A stretch of DNA of 64,000 nt, taken from Bacteroides fragilis (GTDB taxonomy: Bacteria > Pseudomonadota > Alphaproteobacteria > Rs-D84). Under the pieces are notes generated by a model that saw only the letters and a list, made by a program, of their open reading frames with translations, was not told where the DNA came from and did not search any database. The translations under genes and the position numbers were made by a program. This document shows positions 3,251-60,805 of the stretch, piece after piece (the first letter of the stretch is position 1; each line of letters opens with the position of its first letter). The stretch is from the NCBI GenBank assembly GCA_963630775.1, contig CAVGNU010000003.1, positions 19,190 through 83,189 on the forward strand. The letters are read 5' to 3'.

Positions 3251-4894
3251 TTATTCAAATAGCAACGGCAGTATACTGTCCAGAATTTTTCCCGTTGTCG
3301 GCACAACATTCCACGCCGCCGTACGCAACCCCCATGATTCAGAGGTACCATGCGGTTCGTCCAAAACAACTAACATCACATACTGGGGCGCGGTCACAGG
3401 AAAGATTGCCACATACGCTGTCAAGTTACGTTTATTATCAACGCGACCATTTGTGTACTTTTCCGCAGTGGCGGTTTTACCACCAATCTGAATACCGGCA
3501 ACACGTGATTTACGACCACTGGTTTCTTCGGCGACACGCAACATAATTCCGCGCAAGCGCGCCGATATTTCAGGCGATAAAACACGCTGGCCTTGTACCG
3601 CACCAACATCACGCTTTTGCAATGTTGGGTAAATATAGATTCCGCCATTGGTCATCGCGTTGACCGCCAACAATACGTGCATCGGCGTCACCGATATACC
3701 GTGTCCATATGACATAGTTGCGCGTTCAACCGGCCACCAACGTTGTGGCAAATGTGTACGCGCCGTACGGCCAAATTCCAAATTCAAAGGTTCATCAAAA
3801 TGCAGGCGGTGGAAAAATTCTTGCTGTGTGCCATCGGGCAAATCCAGCGCAATTTGCGCACTGCCCACGTTACAAGAATGCAACATAATTTCTTCGACCG
3901 ACAGGTACGGACGCGGTGGTTTGAAAGTGCGCACATCACGCACGCTTTTGGCCACCCGACCGCGTTTATCATAAATCTTGAACGGTTCTTTGACATAATA
4001 TTCCTTGGTAATACCATTTTCCATCGCCATAGCGGTGTTAAAGATTTTGAAAATCGACCCCATTTCATAAGCATCGCCCATCGGCCGGAATTTAATATTT
4101 GTACTAATTTCGTTGTTTCTGATTTCAGGATCAAAATCTGGCAACGATACCATCGCCAACATTTCGCCCGTGCGCGAATTCATCAACACACCCATTGCAG
4201 ATTTTGCCTGATACTTTTGCATTGCTGCCGACAACTGTTCATAAAATACCGATTGAATACGCGAATCCAGCGACAGTCGCAATGGTGCAGTATTTTCACG
4301 CAAGTATGCATCATATATGCGTTCTGCCCCCTCTTGGCCACGCTGATTATTTTGGTCATCTTCGCTAACAAAACCAACCGCATGTGCAAACAAACGACGT
4401 TTTGGATATTTACGGGTTTGAACCTGTTTAACCTCTAGCCCTTCAATACGCGCATCGATAACTGCCCTGCGTTGATTTTCACTGGCGAACTTTTGCAAAT
4501 ACATAAAACCACGCCCCGAATCTACCAATTTCAATGCGTCAGACACACTGTATTGATACGGCAAAATTTGGTGTATCAGGTTCGCCGCCTTGTCCTTGTC
4601 TTTCTCGTTTATTTTATTTGGAAATATCTGAATATGTCCCGATACAATATTTTTAGCCAAAATGTCGCCATTTCTGTCCACAATGTCCGCACGACTAACA
4701 ACCCAGTTTCCCGACGAACCCGCATTACGCGTACGATCTGTTCCCTGAATCCCCAGATATAATGTTCGCGCCGCAAATATACACAGCCAAAAAACAAAGA
4801 ACCCATACACCACGCGCAGACGGCCGTAACCGCGTTTGCCTTCGCCCCCGCTAATAAACTTGTACTTTGAAATATCGTGCCCAACTTCAAACAT
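3251..4894 (-). CDS. ftsI: Class B penicillin-binding protein, FtsI-type peptidoglycan D,D-transpeptidase
   Basis: 547 aa with an N-terminal TM helix. Transpeptidase motifs are GSIFK (SxxK), HSCN (SxN) and GGKTATAE (KTG-like). It sits directly downstream of an FtsL-like gene. Confidence 0.85.
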   Translation of the reverse strand: MFEVGHDISKYKFISGGEGKRGYGRLRVVYGFFVFWLCIFAARTLYLGIQGTDRTRNAGSSGNWVVSRADIVDRNGDILAKNIVSGHIQIFPNKINEKDKDKAANLIHQILPYQYSVSDALKLVDSGRGFMYLQKFASENQRRAVIDARIEGLEVKQVQTRKYPKRRLFAHAVGFVSEDDQNNQRGQEGAERIYDAYLRENTAPLRLSLDSRIQSVFYEQLSAAMQKYQAKSAMGVLMNSRTGEMLAMVSLPDFDPEIRNNEISTNIKFRPMGDAYEMGSIFKIFNTAMAMENGITKEYYVKEPFKIYDKRGRVAKSVRDVRTFKPPRPYLSVEEIMLHSCNVGSAQIALDLPDGTQQEFFHRLHFDEPLNLEFGRTARTHLPQRWWPVERATMSYGHGISVTPMHVLLAVNAMTNGGIYIYPTLQKRDVGAVQGQRVLSPEISARLRGIMLRVAEETSGRKSRVAGIQIGGKTATAEKYTNGRVDNKRNLTAYVAIFPVTAPQYVMLVVLDEPHGTSESWGLRTAAWNVVPTTGKILDSILPLLFE

Positions 4895-4896
4895 GC

Positions 4897-5205
4897 TTAT
4901 TTATCGTCCGTAACGCCCCGCATTGGTAATTCGTCAATAGAAACACTTTTGTGAAAACTGATAACCTCTACCTTTGGGCTGACGGCATCAACCGAATTAC
5001 GTAAAATTTCTGGTCTGACATATGATGCAAAATTTGCCTGACGTGCGGCAATGTCTTGTTGTGTCTGGACAATCTGACGACGCACACGATTATGTGCAGA
5101 ATTTTGGGTGCGATAGCAAACCTGTAATCCGGTTGTCAGTATGATTACTGCAACCAATGACCACAGACCAATTTTGAACATTTTCTCGTCTTCGTTCATT
5201 CTCAC
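4897..5205 (-). CDS. ftsL: FtsL-like small bitopic cell-division protein
   Basis: 102 aa with one TM helix (LWSLVAVIILTTGLQV) followed by a polar, probably coiled segment. It lies immediately upstream of ftsI. Assigned from architecture and context only. Confidence 0.5.
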   Translation of the reverse strand: MRMNEDEKMFKIGLWSLVAVIILTTGLQVCYRTQNSAHNRVRRQIVQTQQDIAARQANFASYVRPEILRNSVDAVSPKVEVISFHKSVSIDELPMRGVTDDK

Positions 5206-7872: not shown

Positions 7873-8397
7873 TCACTTTGTATAGTAACAATTCTTGTTA
7901 TAAAACTGATACGTATGGCCTGAACTGTCTGTCATTTTTGTATTTGCAGGGATAAAGCAATCCGTTATGGACGATTTGTTGTAACCTGATGTTGTGCCAT
8001 TCACACCATCCAATGCCGGACACCGCGTACATCCGGTGGATACATTACCGTAATATCCAACCGCACACAGGCATGACGTTTTATCATTACTTGTTACCAT
8101 ACCATGTAAATCATTACACGACACGACATAGCACCCTGTTGGTTCACCCACCGCATGATAACTGCTGTCACAACATGGCGACATTTTATATGCAGCGCCA
8201 GACCCCGCCACAGAACATGACGTCGTTCCACCATTGGTAAAATTGCCACAATATATCTGGCCATTAATGGTGACGTAATACCCATAACAACGTGTACATA
8301 AACTGCCCGTGGTGCATGACACACCGGATGCACCCCCGCAAATTCCGGCGATTACAACACCGACAACCATGACACATGCTGTACGATTCCATTTCAT
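7873..8397 (-). CDS. Secreted cysteine-rich protein (family member 1)
   Basis: 174 aa with an N-terminal hydrophobic signal-like segment (MKWNRTACVMVVGVVIAG). About one residue in ten is Cys. The C-terminal module CAVGYYGNVSTGCTRCPALDGVNGTTSGYNKSSITDCFIPANTKMTDSSGHTYQFYNKNCYYTK is alignable with the protein encoded at 39497..39787. Confidence 0.7.
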   Translation of the reverse strand: MKWNRTACVMVVGVVIAGICGGASGVSCTTGSLCTRCYGYYVTINGQIYCGNFTNGGTTSCSVAGSGAAYKMSPCCDSSYHAVGEPTGCYVVSCNDLHGMVTSNDKTSCLCAVGYYGNVSTGCTRCPALDGVNGTTSGYNKSSITDCFIPANTKMTDSSGHTYQFYNKNCYYTK

Positions 8398-8687
8398 TTT
8401 CCCACTCCTTTATTGGGTTAAAAAAAAATACCGCCAAAGAATTGGCGGTCGGGGATTTGAAAAATCATAAGCAAAAATGACCCCGTGACTTTTGAACAAA
8501 ATATGTCCTTATCATCACAGACCCCCGACCGGAATACACACAGTCGGGTTAACAAAACACGGCGCGTAAAACACACCGATGTTTGTTCGGATTTACAACG
8601 CAAGAATGCGCCGTTTTGCTTACAGGATTTTCAAGTCCCAGAGCCAACATCCCTGTTGATTCAGGCAACAGTGTAGAAAATTAATAA
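8398..8687 (-). promoter_or_regulatory. Long structured 5' leader with terminator/antiterminator-like alternative pairings (leader L1)
   Basis: Read on the minus strand: CCCGAC (8548-8543), GGTCGGGGG (8530-8522), CCCCGACC (8454-8447), then CCGCC-AATTCTTT-GGCGG (8448-8431) followed by TA plus T9 (8428-8420), then AAGGAG and the ATG. Possible sigma70 promoter TTGTTT-17 nt-TACACT overlaps the tatA terminator tail. Confidence 0.5.
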
Positions 8688-8716
8688 TAAAAAAACAAGC
8701 GCGGATATCCGCGCCT
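8688..8716 (-). terminator. Rho-independent terminator of tatA
   Basis: Minus strand reads GCGCGG-ATAT-CCGCGC-TTGTTTTTTT, immediately downstream of the tatA stop. Confidence 0.8.
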
Positions 8717-39467: not shown

Positions 39468-39500
39468 GAACAGCGCGCCAATGGCGCGCCGATTCTTTAT
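39468..39500. terminator. Hairpin terminator between convergent J-domain gene and the Cys-rich operon
   Basis: GCGCGCC-AAT-GGCGCGC followed by CGATTCTTTATTTT. Confidence 0.6.
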
Positions 39501-39787
39501 TTTGAATAACAACATTTACTCTGTATCACTTGTACACCTGAACCGGTGGTGTCTTGGTAATCAAATTCCGTTCCTGCGGCAAAACAACACGATGTTATGT
39601 CGCCGGTATTTTTATCTGGCGTTGTTGGATACACACCCCCAGACGACGGACACTGGTAACAATTTGAACCACTCAGATAGTATCCTGCCTCGCACGAATA
39701 AGATGTTGTTGTCGTGCATGCCGCATGCGCAACATTCACAATAAATATAACAAATAATGCAGTAATAATTTTTTTCATATTTCTCAC
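39497..39787 (-). CDS. Secreted cysteine-rich protein (family member 3)
   Basis: 96 aa with signal peptide MRNMKKIITALFVIFIVNVAHA. The mature part, CEAGYYLSGSNCYQCPSSGGVYPTTPDKNTGDITSCCFAAGTEFDYQDTTGSGVQVIQSKCCYSK, aligns with the C-terminal module of the 7873..8397 protein. Confidence 0.65.
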   Translation of the reverse strand: MRNMKKIITALFVIFIVNVAHAACTTTTSYSCEAGYYLSGSNCYQCPSSGGVYPTTPDKNTGDITSCCFAAGTEFDYQDTTGSGVQVIQSKCCYSK

Positions 39788-39793
39788 TCTCGA

Positions 39794-40195
39794 TTACAAT
39801 TGATTACACGCCTCACAAGTACCTACCACTTTCCCGGATGCGACACTGCAACATGTACTACACGTGTTCGCATCACACAACCTGGCACAGTACCAATGTT
39901 CCTCGTCTGTGGTGCTGCACGAACCATACATTGCTGTTACATATCTGTGATTGGTGGTATCGTGGGTTGTGCCGGACGTACGTGTGCACGTACCGGAGTT
40001 ATTCGTCCACCCTGATGGACAACTGGCCTCTACCACAGAATAACACGCCCCCAACGAACAGTTTTGTGCGCAAAGAGACAATGATGCATAATACGGATCG
40101 AGCAGCGAAAAATCAGGATTTAATTTTGACGCATCTACCGCAAATGCGCACGGCATCATGACCAGTATCAGCGGAATTGCAAACAGTTTCTTCAT
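39794..40195 (-). CDS. Secreted cysteine-rich protein (family member 2)
   Basis: I prefer the Met at 40195 (MKKLFAIPLILVMMPCAFA signal peptide), preceded by AAGGGGG. 133 aa, about 10% Cys, with CxxC/CC pairs (CSTCC, CEAC). It lies 6 nt upstream of the next Cys-rich gene. Confidence 0.65.
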   Translation of the reverse strand: MKKLFAIPLILVMMPCAFAVDASKLNPDFSLLDPYYASLSLCAQNCSLGACYSVVEASCPSGWTNNSGTCTRTSGTTHDTTNHRYVTAMYGSCSTTDEEHWYCARLCDANTCSTCCSVASGKVVGTCEACNQL

Positions 40196-40330
40196 TTCAC
40201 ACCCCCTTATGTGTTTTGCAAACAAAAAACCACCGAAATAATTCAGGTGGTTGGAGGTTCGAAACAATTATCAAGAATTGTGGGCCTATTCAATATATTC
40301 AGCCACCCTCCAACCGCATGGTTGGGGGTG
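40196..40330 (-). promoter_or_regulatory. Conserved leader module L2 (alternative-pairing element plus hairpin/U-tract before the RBS)
   Basis: Minus strand: CCCCCAACC (40328-40320) atgc GGTTGGAGG (40315-40307), 49 nt, CCTCCAACC (40257-40249) overlapping AACCACC-loop-GGTGGTT (40252-40228), then TTTTTT, AAGGGGG and ATG. Near-identical to 60552-60690. Confidence 0.55.
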
Positions 40331-40338
40331 ACGGCATT

Positions 40339-40378
40339 GAAAAAACGAAACATCGCAAGGATATAAATCCATGCGATG
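40339..40378 (-). terminator. Intrinsic-terminator-like hairpin about 10 nt upstream of leader module L2
   Basis: Minus strand reads CATCGCATGGA-TTTATA-TCCTTGCGATG-TTTCGTTTTTTC. Confidence 0.5.
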
Positions 40379-40529
40379 CCGAAATCTCTACCGTCTGCAT
40401 TTTATGACGCGTAATGCGTTCATCTTGATAAAGGGTTTCGACACCCCGCCAATGGAACACCCATCGGCAATGGAATAATAAAATAAAAAAACACTATACA
40501 CAAGAGAAAAAAATATTTTGACCAAATTT

Positions 40530-48450: not shown

Positions 48451-48718
48451 TTAGAGAGCAAAGCGCAGAGAGCAGAGAGCAATGAATGTGTCCGCCAATG
48501 GCGGACAATTTTTATTTTCTGGATTGCTTCACTGCGTTTGCAATGAAACCGAGCGGTACGCGAAGGTTGCGGCAAGGACGTAAGTCCGCAGGCGACACAT
48601 GCACAAAACAACGTCATTGCGAGCGAGCGAGCGCAAGCGACGCGCGGCAATCCAGTTTATTTTATGTTGCGCGCAGCGCACAAACATTGCTCTCTGCTCT
48701 CTGCGCTTTGCTCTCTAA
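48451..48718. mobile_element. Nested palindromic MITE-like element with perfect 34-bp terminal inverted repeats
   Basis: Left TIR TTAGAGAGCAAAGCGCAGAGAGCAGAGAGCAATG (48451-48484) is the exact reverse complement of 48685-48718. Inside are the terminator hairpin GTCCGCC-AAT-GGCGGAC-AATTTTT (48490-48516) and a second inverted pair CTGGATTGC (48519-27) / GCAATCCAG (48647-55), with GCAATGA / TCATTGC nested within. No transposase. Confidence 0.7.
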
Positions 48719-59888: not shown

Positions 59889-60551
59889 TTAAAATGTATG
59901 TCTCAATCCAAAATCAATGCTATATGCACCCTGCAGGTCAAAATCATCATCTGCATTCAAACCGATAAAGTTCAAACTCACATTCCAACCAAGTCCTTCA
60001 ACGGCGGTTTCGCCATTCAGGCCAAACTTTAATACCCCCGCGGCACCATTATCAGACATTGTTTCTTTGCCATATCCGTAAACCTTTACAGATTCATTTA
60101 CCCATGCATGACCCAAGCCGAATGAAAAAACAAAATCTAAACGCCGCCCTTCATTACCAGACAAACGAATATAATTATCGTATGTAAAATACAATGTTGT
60201 TAAATCTATTTTGCCATCCATGTTGACTCTATAAAAATTCCCATAGGAATCTTCCAAAATAAAATTTGGACCAGCGGTTAAATGACCTACCTGGGGCATA
60301 TACGATAATGTTGCACTGACACCACCATTATAAACACTGCTGTGTTCACCAAAACGCAGTCCGAATACCCCAGACCACGTTATGGTGACACCATCAGATT
60401 TTAATATATCGTCATCAATGGAATCTTCCACATCATCTGAAAATACTGGCCCAGCAAAACCAACTTTCATCCCCAGAAACAATTTTGTTTCTGCCATTGC
60501 TGGCATGGCCAAAATAGACAGCAACCCCGTTGTTAAAAATAATTTTCTCAT
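59889..60551 (-). CDS. Small outer-membrane beta-barrel protein
   Basis: I prefer the Met at 60551 (MRKLFLTTGLLSILAMPAMA signal peptide). Beta-strand periodicity and a C-terminal ..GLRHTF. Confidence 0.7.
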   Translation of the reverse strand: MRKLFLTTGLLSILAMPAMAETKLFLGMKVGFAGPVFSDDVEDSIDDDILKSDGVTITWSGVFGLRFGEHSSVYNGGVSATLSYMPQVGHLTAGPNFILEDSYGNFYRVNMDGKIDLTTLYFTYDNYIRLSGNEGRRLDFVFSFGLGHAWVNESVKVYGYGKETMSDNGAAGVLKFGLNGETAVEGLGWNVSLNFIGLNADDDFDLQGAYSIDFGLRHTF

Positions 60552-60690
60552 TTCACACCTCTGTTTATGTTCTGTTAAACAAAAACCACAATGGAATACC
60601 AAAGTGGTTGGAGGTTGAATACTATTATTTACGGAATAGTGTCGCTTATTCTAATATATCGCGACCCTCCAACCATCAAGGATTGGAGGT
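60552..60690 (-). promoter_or_regulatory. Conserved leader module L3 (same module as 40196-40330)
   Basis: Minus strand: CCTCCAATCC (60689-60680) ttgat GGTTGGAGG (60674-60666), 51 nt, CCTCCAACC (60614-60606) overlapping CCAC-loop-GTGG (60607-60586), then TTTTT, AGAGG and ATG. A TATAAT on the minus strand at 60765-60760 could be the promoter. Confidence 0.55.
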
Positions 60691-60805
60691 ATTTTTTGTC
60701 CCCACGGACACGTAAATAGAGGGTATTCACACCCTGCACCATTTCTGTGGTACACGTTGATTATATTCTATGGCACATTCAAATTCCAGATAAAATTTAC
60801 GCTGA

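Follow-up and report, generated by a model that had tools for sequence, protein, structure and literature searches.

A repeated leader upstream of secreted-protein genes

The window analyzed here, a 64,000-nucleotide (nt) stretch of contig CAVGNU010000003.1 from an alphaproteobacterium of the order Rs-D84, contains at positions 40196 to 40330 a block that lies, on the minus strand, directly upstream of a gene for a cysteine (Cys)-rich secreted protein (open reading frame [ORF] 39794-40195). An earlier note on this DNA had described it as an RNA leader module of about 125 nt, almost repeated upstream of an outer membrane protein (OMP)-like gene, in which three mutually exclusive pairings would end in a hairpin and a U-tract. 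The module is present, but it is only the 3' half of an element about twice that length: the flagged stretch belongs to a structured leader RNA of about 200 to 290 nt with its own promoter. On balance, we favor the reading that this leader attenuates transcription in cis: its default state would be off, and it would be turned on when a pseudoknotted junction fold captures the segment that would otherwise nucleate the terminator. The copy at the flagged position, copy A, is organized as follows (H, hairpin; seg, segment; P0 and P1, the alternative helices seg1:seg2 and seg2:seg3; P2 and P3, the hairpins between seg2 and seg3; J, linker; SD, Shine-Dalgarno sequence).

40193 to 40503, minus strand: whole unit, running from the promoter to the ATG of the gene for the Cys-rich secreted protein (ORF 39794-40195)
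40475 to 40503, minus strand: promoter TTGTGT-N17-TATTAT, matching the conserved promoter columns of alignment A2
40448 to 40468, minus strand: H1, GCCGAUGG-GUGUU-CCAUUGGC; H1 covaries across the family
40432 to 40447, minus strand: H2, GGGG-UGUCGAAA-CCCU; its loop at 40441-40436 (UCGAAA) is the 5' strand of the pseudoknot
40404 to 40423, minus strand: H3, followed by AAAAU; optional in the family
40330 to 40395, minus strand: inserted hairpin of 66 nt between H3 and seg1, specific to copy A, with the inner stem CAUCGCA/UGCGAUG and UUUCGUUUUUU, terminator-like
40320 to 40328, minus strand: seg1, CCCCCAACC; forms P0, the anti-antiterminator, with seg2
40307 to 40315, minus strand: seg2, GGUUGGAGG; partner of either seg1 (P0) or seg3 (P1)
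40281 to 40306, minus strand: P2, with the conserved loop GAAUAUAUUGAAUA
40265 to 40280, minus strand: P3, CAAUU...AAUUG; includes the GATAAT read earlier as a -10 box
40258 to 40264, minus strand: linker J, UUUCGAA; 3' strand of the pseudoknot, partner of the H2 loop
40249 to 40257, minus strand: seg3, CCUCCAACC; 3' strand of P1, its last 4 nt also belonging to the terminator stem, its CCUCC able to pair with the SD
40224 to 40252, minus strand: terminator AACCACC-loop-GGUGGUU, followed by U6
40193 to 40206, minus strand: SD GGGGG (40206-40202) and ATG (40195-40193)

The minus-strand sequences that had been quoted for copy A (40195-40330) and for copy B, upstream of the OMP-like gene (60551-60690), were both found exactly as written, and their near identity holds, with 78% column identity over an alignment of about 165 nt. 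A third copy had also been claimed; it corresponds to copy C on the minus strand at about 8417-8565. An nhmmer profile built from copies A and B detected copy C as a weak third site near 8400-8490 (E = 0.007), and with the covariance model R1 its score was 40.8 bits (E = 1e-9), next to 97.9 bits for copy A (at 40216-40343) and 100.5 bits for copy B. The repeat exceeds chance expectation: CCTCCAACCAC occurs five times in the window with at most one mismatch, against 0.81 expected, a count reached in 0 of 100 shuffles, and exact GGTTGGAGG is confined to copies A and B. The 3' halves of copies A and B fold much better than shuffled sequences (z-scores of -3.8 and -5.2). Their minimum-energy fold comprises the seg1:seg2 hairpin, small P2 and P3 helices, and a 3' domain in which seg3 CCUCC pairs with the SD around the terminator hairpin.

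The leader is widespread in Rs-D84 genomes

Homologues were searched with the pattern GGTTGGAGG-N35-65-CCTCCAACC, using one genome per species. At least 119 loci were found, most of them in gut or rumen metagenome-assembled genomes labeled "Candidatus Enterousia," uncultured Alphaproteobacteria, or "Rickettsiales bacterium"; the remaining loci among the pattern matches listed are chance palindromes in unrelated phyla. Scanning of these loci by nhmmer and then by R1 yielded about 100 true elements, 14 of which lie outside the exact search pattern, and the order of the hosts is Rs-D84. In all, metagenome-assembled genomes of Rs-D84/"Ca. Enterousia" hold more than 100 homologues. "Ca. Enterousia" and its relatives in Rs-D84 are uncultured gut Alphaproteobacteria with reduced genomes of about 0.75 to 1.0 Mb that depend on partners (PMC12306168). 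From the three copies in the 64-kb window and about 14 additional ones in about 680 kb of flanking DNA we estimate, rather than count, roughly 20 to 40 copies per genome. The literature on Enterousia, Rs-D84, and RF32 that was searched for riboswitch, anti-antiterminator, or XRE motif holds no description of the leader RNA.

An upstream-extended alignment gave a conserved order of parts: promoter, H1, H2, optional H3, seg1, seg2, P2, P3, J, seg3, terminator, SD, and ATG. The unit starts with the promoter, which is located about 100 to 135 nt upstream of seg2 (about 190 nt in the insertion-bearing copy A) and has the form TTGnnn-N17-T(G)nTAnnAT; in alignment A2, conservation is 90% or higher at the T, A, A, and T positions of the -10 box and at one T position of the -35 box. 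H2 has the consensus GGGG-nGUCGAAA-CCCy. The optional H3 and an A-run precede seg1 (CUCCAACC), which is separated by a variable loop of 3 to 13 nt from seg2 (GGUUGGAGG). P2 carries the conserved loop GAAUAUAUUGAAUAAG, where some copies have an extra inserted hairpin, and a linker J resembling GUUUCGAA leads into seg3 (CCUCCAACC), with 45 to 65 nt between seg2 and seg3 across copies. The terminator hairpin AACCRCY...RGYGGUU reuses the last 4 nt of seg3 and is followed by a U-run, from which a spacer of 10 to 35 nt leads to the SD and ATG.

The RNAalifold consensus of 64 sequences selected H1, P1 (seg2:seg3), P2, and P3. A three-way junction is thus outlined in which a 9-bp P1 closes P2 and P3 and a U-rich linker precedes its 3' strand. 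The unpaired nucleotides GAAUA...AAUAAG of the P2 loop and G47 are conserved; the P0 loop is not.

The inserted hairpin of copy A is found neither in copy B nor in most homologues. A hairpin followed by U6 to U8 occurs at the matching position in a divergent set of copies (type II, of which copy C is a variant; copy B has the canonical type I form) and in bona fide members of the family sRNA-Xcc1 described below. As read from the sequence, some leaders may have two successive termination points, one at such a hairpin and one at the 3' terminator.

Covariation supports a pseudoknotted RNA

The note had proposed a covariance model as a check, and with R1 built and the homologues scanned, compensatory substitutions were found in the stems that had been put forward. 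Strong covariation was also found in a pseudoknot between the H2 loop and J, whose strands lie about 140 nt apart. In alignment A2 it is paired in 96.9% of cells and all six of its pairs show changes on both sides; one pair alone occurs as AU 27 times, CG 23 times, GC 5 times, and UA 5 times. When the pairing was slid by 1 to 3 columns, the paired fraction dropped to 33 to 50%. An alignment-free test gave a consistent picture: in 77 of the 86 copies, the 6 nt just before seg3 have an exact reverse complement in the upstream domain, against 5.7 expected.

Changes on both sides were also observed in H1 (6 of 7 pairs), H2 (3 of 4), P3 (4 of 5 to 6), and the terminator stem (4 of 8). Helix P2, the small stem for which covariation between copies A and B had been suggested, has 4 of its 5 pairs changed on both sides among 59 to 64 homologues. 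For the full structure of 36 pairs, the observed covariation was reached by none of 500 column shuffles. The compensatory changes in all six pseudoknot pairs indicate that the block functions as RNA rather than as an internal promoter or operator.

Two further candidates were rejected. RNAfold proposed a long-range helix between the 5' arm of H2 (GGGG) and CCUC of seg3; in the alignment, the G-to-A change in A2 column 120 is compensated inside H2 (columns 120 and 135 form 13 A:U pairs), and seg3 is invariant. A second promoter just upstream of seg1 (A-rich, TAAAAT-like) has, by eye, no consistent -35 box and is missing in copies that lack H3.

Three segments that change together

The proposal of an RNA leader with exclusive 1:2, 2:3, and 3:4 pairings and a terminal hairpin with a U-tract is supported by triple covariation, by the stems described above, and by the U-tails. 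Because seg2 and seg3 were set by the search pattern, only copies that R1 detected outside it are informative. In two of these (L041 and L057) the three segments read CCUUCUGCC/GGCAGGAGG/CCUCCUGCC, in L036 they read UCCCGACC/GGUCGGGAG/CUCCCGACC, and in copy C they read CCCGAC/GGUCGGGGG/CCCCGACC; triple changes of a similar kind were seen in L064, L020, L074, and L154. As seg1, seg2, and seg3 change together, both P0 and P1 are under selection. In type I copies, the mismatches of seg1 to a perfect complement are mainly C-to-U and A-to-G, which keep G-U pairs. The three-fold complementarity also accounts for a 9-nt helix sequence that is frozen across species, given that any change needs three coordinated mutations.

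The terminator pairs made with the last 4 nt of seg3 are formed in 73 to 100% of copies. Because the stem uses these nucleotides, a full P1 leaves only 3 to 5 distal terminator pairs. The hairpin has a free energy of -9.6 ± 2 kcal/mol, and 79 of the 86 copies have at least five U in the next 8 nt. The energies of the alternative structures, a comparison that had been suggested in the note, favor P0 plus terminator over the P1 state by 9.6 ± 5.2 kcal/mol, and do so in 96.5% of the 86 copies, in a nearest-neighbor calculation that carries no term for the pseudoknot or for tertiary contacts. This thermodynamic preference points to "off" as the default state.

The CCUCC segments had alternatively been read as anti-SD sequences. 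With P0 forced, the SD nucleotides pair with seg3 CCUCC with a probability of 0.68, and the probability that the SD is unpaired is 0.18, versus 0.31 with P1 forced (Wilcoxon p = 8e-5), although the complementarity of SD and CCUCC is partly trivial. On these values, anti-SD pairing is a plausible secondary effect, by which the free CCUCC of seg3 probably masks the SD in addition.

Genes downstream of the leader

A same-strand ORF preceded by an SD follows 74 of the 86 elements, at a median distance of 18 nt from the model end. In 66 of these the distance from the model end to the ORF start is 0 to 40 nt, too short to accommodate another promoter. Among 58 downstream proteins scanned, 12 matched HTH_31 and 12 matched HTH_19, both XRE-type helix-turn-helix (HTH) domains. 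Most of the others are orphan proteins with signal peptides that are often Cys-rich, with Pfam matches to Ephrin_rec_like, Listeria-Bacteroides repeat, and Gly_rich_2; one ABC transporter and one phospholipase D (PLD) nuclease are also present. Copies without H3 tend to precede small regulators: the distance from H2 to seg2 is below 50 nt for 75% of small proteins without a signal peptide versus 42% of signal-peptide proteins. The idea that the H3-less variant is tied exclusively to XRE genes was considered and dropped, these numbers describing a tendency only.

In the window, the gene after copy A (133 amino acids) and the next ORF (96 amino acids), at 39497-40195 on the minus strand, both encode small, Cys-rich signal-peptide proteins without a Pfam match. 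Orphan Cys-rich proteins of this kind follow many copies in other genomes.

A diverged branch of the sRNA-Xcc1 superfamily

The earlier note recognized no known leader class in the block. At gathering thresholds, no Rfam family matched anywhere in the window; at permissive thresholds, however, the seg2-to-seg3 core distantly matches sRNA-Xcc1 (RF02221), the only Rfam family that recurs. Copy A scored 37.6 bits (E = 1e-5 locally) and copy C scored 27.1 bits, and four other Rs-D84 elements scored 32.7 to 39.7 bits, all below the gathering threshold of 53 bits; copy B was not reported at E values up to 10. These six elements align with RF02221 from end to end (positions 1 to 87). Bona fide members score 69 to 73 bits. 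Reciprocally, R1 matched at RF02221 positions in L264 (37.1 bits), L261 (32.1), L266 (21.2), L262 (19.4), and L265 (14.5); the RF02221 scores of 69 to 73 bits apply to the bona fide members, and the three phage copies included here (14.5 to 37.1 bits) were identified by blastn and R1.

sRNA-Xcc1 is an RNA of Beta- and Gammaproteobacteria borne on integrons, phages, and islands, which accumulates in Xanthomonas as an RNA of about 88 to 100 nt according to Northern blots and rapid amplification of cDNA ends (PMC2996969). Related copies lie upstream of symE in integron cassettes and upstream of an ORF6N gene in APSE phages. Xylella has seven expressed copies, five of them in tandem (PMC12189769), an arrangement that resembles the tandem units described below.

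The RF02221 consensus consists of P1 (GGCCGGGGG/CCCCCGGCC), a P2 with AUACAA and a GNRA-capped hairpin, P3, and the linker UUUUGAG. The Rs-D84 elements share with it the 9-bp G-rich/C-rich P1 (seg2:seg3), the P2 and P3 hairpins, the U-rich J, and a short tail. In type II copies, P2 still has the AUACAA internal loop and, beyond it, the P2b hairpin: the internal loop AAUACAA/GGGGAAUAA and the GNRA cap are present in L020, L064, and L074, and copy C has a diverged version. In contrast, the type I copies A and B lack P2b and AUACAA, the internal loop being reduced to GAAUAUAUUGAAUAAG, and have AU-rich P2 and P3 helices and a fixed GGUUGGAGG/CCUCCAACC.

The complementarity behind the pseudoknot can also be read in the relatives. 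Four bona fide members, read from sequence, have an upstream hairpin loop complementary to J, as in Rs-D84: CGUCGAAA and GUUUCGA in L261, CUUGAACA and UGUUCAAG in L262, GUAAGAAC and GUUCUUAA in L260, and UAAGAAAC and GUUUCUUA in L263. The same was seen in the Mannheimia phage copy L266 (GUCGAAAC and UUUCGA). All relatives read, bona fide and phage, have a hairpin and a U-run. Of these relatives, the three phage copies alone clearly show a short seg1-like hairpin; the four bona fide plasmid or chromosome members do not. In Rs-D84, seg1 is longer, with 7 to 9 bp. The terminator differs as well: in Rs-D84 it overlaps seg3 by 3 to 4 nt and excludes P1, whereas in the relatives the hairpin after seg3 often has no U-tract and, in the one phage copy read closely (L266), no overlap with seg3.

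Bona fide members on plasmids lie directly upstream of a BRO-family gene and of a hypothetical gene, and blastn found matching cores 40 to 270 nt upstream of the anti-repressor Ant genes of Stx2, Aggregatibacter, and Mannheimia phages. In Aggregatibacter phage S1249 (L265, 1380-1860), two consecutive Xcc1-type leaders, each with a promoter-like sequence, precede ant. sRNA-Xcc1 has been described as an 88-nt trans-acting sRNA; the Rs-D84 elements add a 5' domain, the pseudoknot, and the switch, none of which is described in the literature searched on sRNA-Xcc1, a coverage that does not include the 2011 sRNA-Xcc1 paper. Host and gene set differ too, with Alphaproteobacteria of Rs-D84 and genes for XRE regulators and Cys-rich secreted proteins.

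As far as can be read from the sequences, the Rs-D84 elements are a diverged, expanded branch of the sRNA-Xcc1 superfamily, in which the longer seg1 and the terminator overlapping seg3 would make a genuine switch. The leader is thus a lineage-specific expansion of a poorly understood known family and not a wholly new class.

Proposed mechanism

In the attenuator reading, each copy would be the 5' leader of the following gene, transcribed from its own sigma-70-type promoter. The nascent RNA would first form H1, H2, H3 where present, and the P0 hairpin. With seg2 locked in P0, seg3 would remain free, its 3' end would nucleate the terminator, and RNA polymerase would stop at the U-tract, releasing a short product of about 200 nt. 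In any transcript that reads through, the SD could still be paired with the unbound CCUCC of seg3. In the alternative fold, seg3 would displace seg1 and pair with seg2 as P1, closing the three-way junction with P2 and P3. P1 and the pseudoknot helix (H2 loop with J) are probably stacked on each other, since J abuts seg3 and the two helices share a continuous strand. Formation of P1 would remove 4 bp from the terminator stem and sequester the anti-SD, and the gene would be transcribed and translated. The helices, the pseudoknot, the three-way complementarity, the features of the terminator, and the linkage to genes are established by the analysis; we infer that P0 plus terminator is the default and that a factor acting in trans (a small ligand, a protein, or RNA processing) shifts the balance to P1.

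This logic is that of classical attenuators (trp-type; PyrR and S-box systems), with seg1:seg2 as anti-antiterminator, seg2:seg3 as antiterminator, and seg3:seg4 with the U-tract as terminator, and the leader does contain mutually exclusive 1:2, 2:3, and 3:4 pairings that end in an intrinsic terminator, as an attenuator should. It differs from them in that the antiterminator closes a three-way junction tied by a pseudoknot to a 5' domain, and from PyrR systems in that a PyrR-type binding loop is lacking, the P0 loop not being conserved. Attenuation by a leader peptide (trp-type) was rejected: the ORFs over seg1 are in different frames in copies A and B and have no SD, and the H3 region is either a covarying hairpin or missing.

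Several observations weigh against an attenuator. P0 forms ahead of seg3 synthesis, and turning the leader on would therefore need strand displacement or a factor. The energy comparison that favors P0 leaves out the pseudoknot and tertiary contacts. No metabolic theme is shared by the downstream proteins, with their XRE regulators and orphan Cys-rich secreted proteins, which is atypical of metabolite riboswitches. In L266, the only phage copy checked closely, the hairpin after seg3 does not overlap it, and the switch is perhaps not superfamily-wide. Related RNAs have been described as trans-acting sRNAs. In two metagenome-assembled genomes, at L074 (1-1260) and L031 (6844-7240), units complete with promoter, leader, and terminator stand in tandem; no ORF separates them or follows immediately, and the first unit of each pair is without an obvious seg1. 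Given these tandem units and the trans-acting relatives, the terminated RNA could itself be the functional product.

Alternative explanations

Taken further, this would make each unit a stand-alone gene for a trans-acting sRNA with constitutive termination, the downstream genes being neighbors or passively read through and seg2:seg3 serving as a closing stem. The sub-threshold but reciprocal similarity to an annotated sRNA (RF02221), the RNA of about 88 to 100 nt in Xanthomonas, the seven expressed copies of Xylella (five in tandem), the ORF-less units of L074 and L031, and the thermodynamically favored terminated state are all consistent with it. We nevertheless consider it unlikely, in view of the same-strand SD and ORF after 74 of 86 elements, 66 of which start within 0 to 40 nt with no room for a separate promoter, of the covariation of seg1 with seg2, needless for a simple closing stem, and of the overlap of terminator and seg3, by which a closed P1 and a full terminator are mutually exclusive. 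An orphan riboswitch, to which we give a similarly small chance, would use the junction of H2, pseudoknot, P1, P2, and P3 as an aptamer for a small molecule or ion, whose binding would stabilize P1 and act as an ON switch. The structured, covarying, aptamer-like fold, with its pseudoknot, three-way junction, and conserved unpaired nucleotides, is indeed coupled to a classical expression platform, as in riboswitches, and T-box and c-di-GMP regulons likewise comprise many copies per genome. SAM-I/S-box-type riboswitches, for example, offer a parallel, with a conserved junction, a loop-to-linker pseudoknot next to P1, and a P1 3' strand shared with the terminator. Unlike them, the leader has an extra upstream competitor (seg1) and no association with metabolic genes; no riboswitch was matched in the window when the Rfam riboswitch, leader, and ribozyme families were searched, even at permissive E values. 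The regulon without a coherent metabolic theme argues against this explanation, as do the relatives, which precede ant, BRO, and symE in settings of the phage immunity type. A 9-bp P1 and a seg1 that are conserved in sequence, with P0 forming first, are unusual for ligand-gated ON switches.

The immunity RNAs P1 c4, P4 CI, and N15 CA are cis-encoded leader RNAs upstream of anti-repressor-type genes, present in multiple copies in mobile elements, in which repeated complementary segments cause premature termination or translational block. By analogy, the seg2-to-seg3 core could be excised, e.g., by RNase P at the 5' end of P1, and then enforce termination of nascent leaders through their complementary seg1- or seg3-type sites. 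The three-fold complementarity has a counterpart in seqA, seqB, and seqC of P4. We regard this as improbable. It would fit the relatives upstream of phage anti-repressor genes, an RCC after P1 in many copies, and the mapped 88-nt sRNA-Xcc1, which matches in length the 87-position RF02221 model starting at P1 nucleotide 1; the 5' end of sRNA-Xcc1 would then fall exactly on the first nucleotide of P1, as judged from this length match only. However, the C4 family (RF01695) had no match in the window at the gathering threshold, nor over the three copies at permissive ones, and the leader resembles these RNAs in the window neither in sequence nor by model. Its complementary segments can act intramolecularly, seg2 would be paired in P1 of the mature core rather than exposed, and the RCC nucleotides are accounted for by the terminator stem. 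The note had also left open a DNA element, with a promoter inside the block and the 9-mers as operator half-sites, e.g., for XRE proteins. GATAAT/AATAAT does lie 9 nt before CCTCCAACC in copies A and B, TTGAAT...TATAGT/GATAAT-like hexamers stand between seg2 and seg3, CCTCCAACC-N4-GGTTGGAGG is a perfect DNA palindrome, and many downstream genes encode HTH proteins. The supposed -10 box is instead the 3' arm of P3 and the pseudoknot strand J, both covarying with RNA partners, in the case of J with a hairpin loop about 140 nt upstream. In addition, a well-conserved promoter lies upstream of H1, a promoter scan of the block on its minus strand finds no site, the seg2-seg3 spacer varies from 45 to 65 nt with hairpins inserted in the supposed -35 box, the G-U-compatible changes of seg1 break the palindrome, and the triple covariation reaches seg3, about 50 nt away. 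We therefore reject the DNA reading, which retains hardly any probability.

Returning to the attenuator, a single RNA device stands before many genes for XRE regulators and Cys-rich secreted proteins, and it probably serves as a master switch of the cell-surface program. A more tentative proposal treats the leader as an orphan sensor, be it a riboswitch or one that needs a dedicated factor, which would gate a large share of the Rs-D84 surface and secreted proteome together with XRE regulators. If so, the annotated "sRNA-Xcc1" would be the mere core of a larger pseudoknotted cis-regulatory leader for anti-repressor, toxin, and surface genes. Annotated members of the sRNA-Xcc1 family precede ant, BRO, and symE genes in many pathogens and temperate phages, and the comparative data, which add to the family a 5' domain, a strongly covarying pseudoknot, and a three-segment switch, suggest that it is a cis-acting leader rather than, or besides, a trans-acting sRNA. 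The promoters and terminators resemble standard Escherichia coli-type signals, which makes direct in vitro testing feasible.

Copies B and C and other occurrences

The two other copies of the window have the following features. In copy C the pseudoknot is UUGAAAA:UUUUCAA.

60549 to 60788, minus strand: copy B, complete unit preceding the OMP-like gene (ORF 59889-60551)
60788-60760, minus strand: copy B promoter, TGGAAT-N17-TATAAT
About 60754-60735, minus strand: copy B H1; H2 at 60735-60720, with the pseudoknot strand at 60729-60724; H3 at 60709-60698
60689-60681, minus strand: copy B seg1; seg2 at 60674-60666; P2 at 60665-60641; P3 at 60640-60621
60621-60615, minus strand: copy B J; seg3 at 60614-60606; terminator and U-run at 60609-60581
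60561-60558, minus strand: copy B SD; ATG at 60551
8395 to 8698, minus strand: copy C (type II variant), complete unit preceding a gene for a Cys-rich secreted protein (ORF 7873-8397)
8698-8670, minus strand: copy C promoter, TTGTTT-N17-TACACT
8662-8641, minus strand: copy C H1; H2 at 8639-8624, with the pseudoknot strand UUGAAAA at 8634-8628
8612-8561, minus strand: copy C long H3-like hairpin
8548-8543, minus strand: copy C seg1, CCCGAC; seg2, GGUCGGGGG, at 8530-8522
8521-8464, minus strand: copy C P2 and P3 (P2 longer); J, UUUUCAA, at 8463-8457
8454-8447, minus strand: copy C seg3, CCCCGACC; terminator and U9 at 8449-8420
8408-8405, minus strand: copy C SD; ATG at 8397

A type II pattern, GGTCGGGG...CCCCGACC, was searched in metagenomes, and among the first 100 of its 120 loci, which were those scanned by R1, one true element was found (L154), most of the others being an unrelated palindrome. 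In many soil and sediment contigs (L140-L239), GGTCGGGG-N-CCCCGACC recurs at a constant span of 79 nt as this unrelated element, possibly tRNA-like. Another type II copy (L064) lies about 450 nt from an alphaproteobacterial two-piece tmRNA (4574-4951; RF01849, 148 bits).

True type I elements were found on four IMG/VR predicted viral contigs (L123, L124, L128, and L129). On L123 (7803-13164), the element precedes a gene for a secreted protein, and genes for a P2 gpD-like tail protein, a lysozyme-like protein, a PLD-like nuclease, and a DNA methyltransferase are nearby. The presence of elements on such contigs, one beside P2-like tail and lysis genes, fits a phage origin of the module.

The window also contains, at 48514-48660, an inverted repeat resembling repetitive extragenic palindromes (REP-like), CTGGATTGC...TTGCAATGA / TCATTGCGAGCG...GGCAATCCAG. 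The same GTCATTGCGAG...GCAATCCAGTAAAT element stands directly upstream of the -35 box in many XRE-type copies of the leader in other metagenome-assembled genomes (L009, L019, L069, L071, and L074), and the repeat is perhaps mobile and either contains the leader promoter or borders it.

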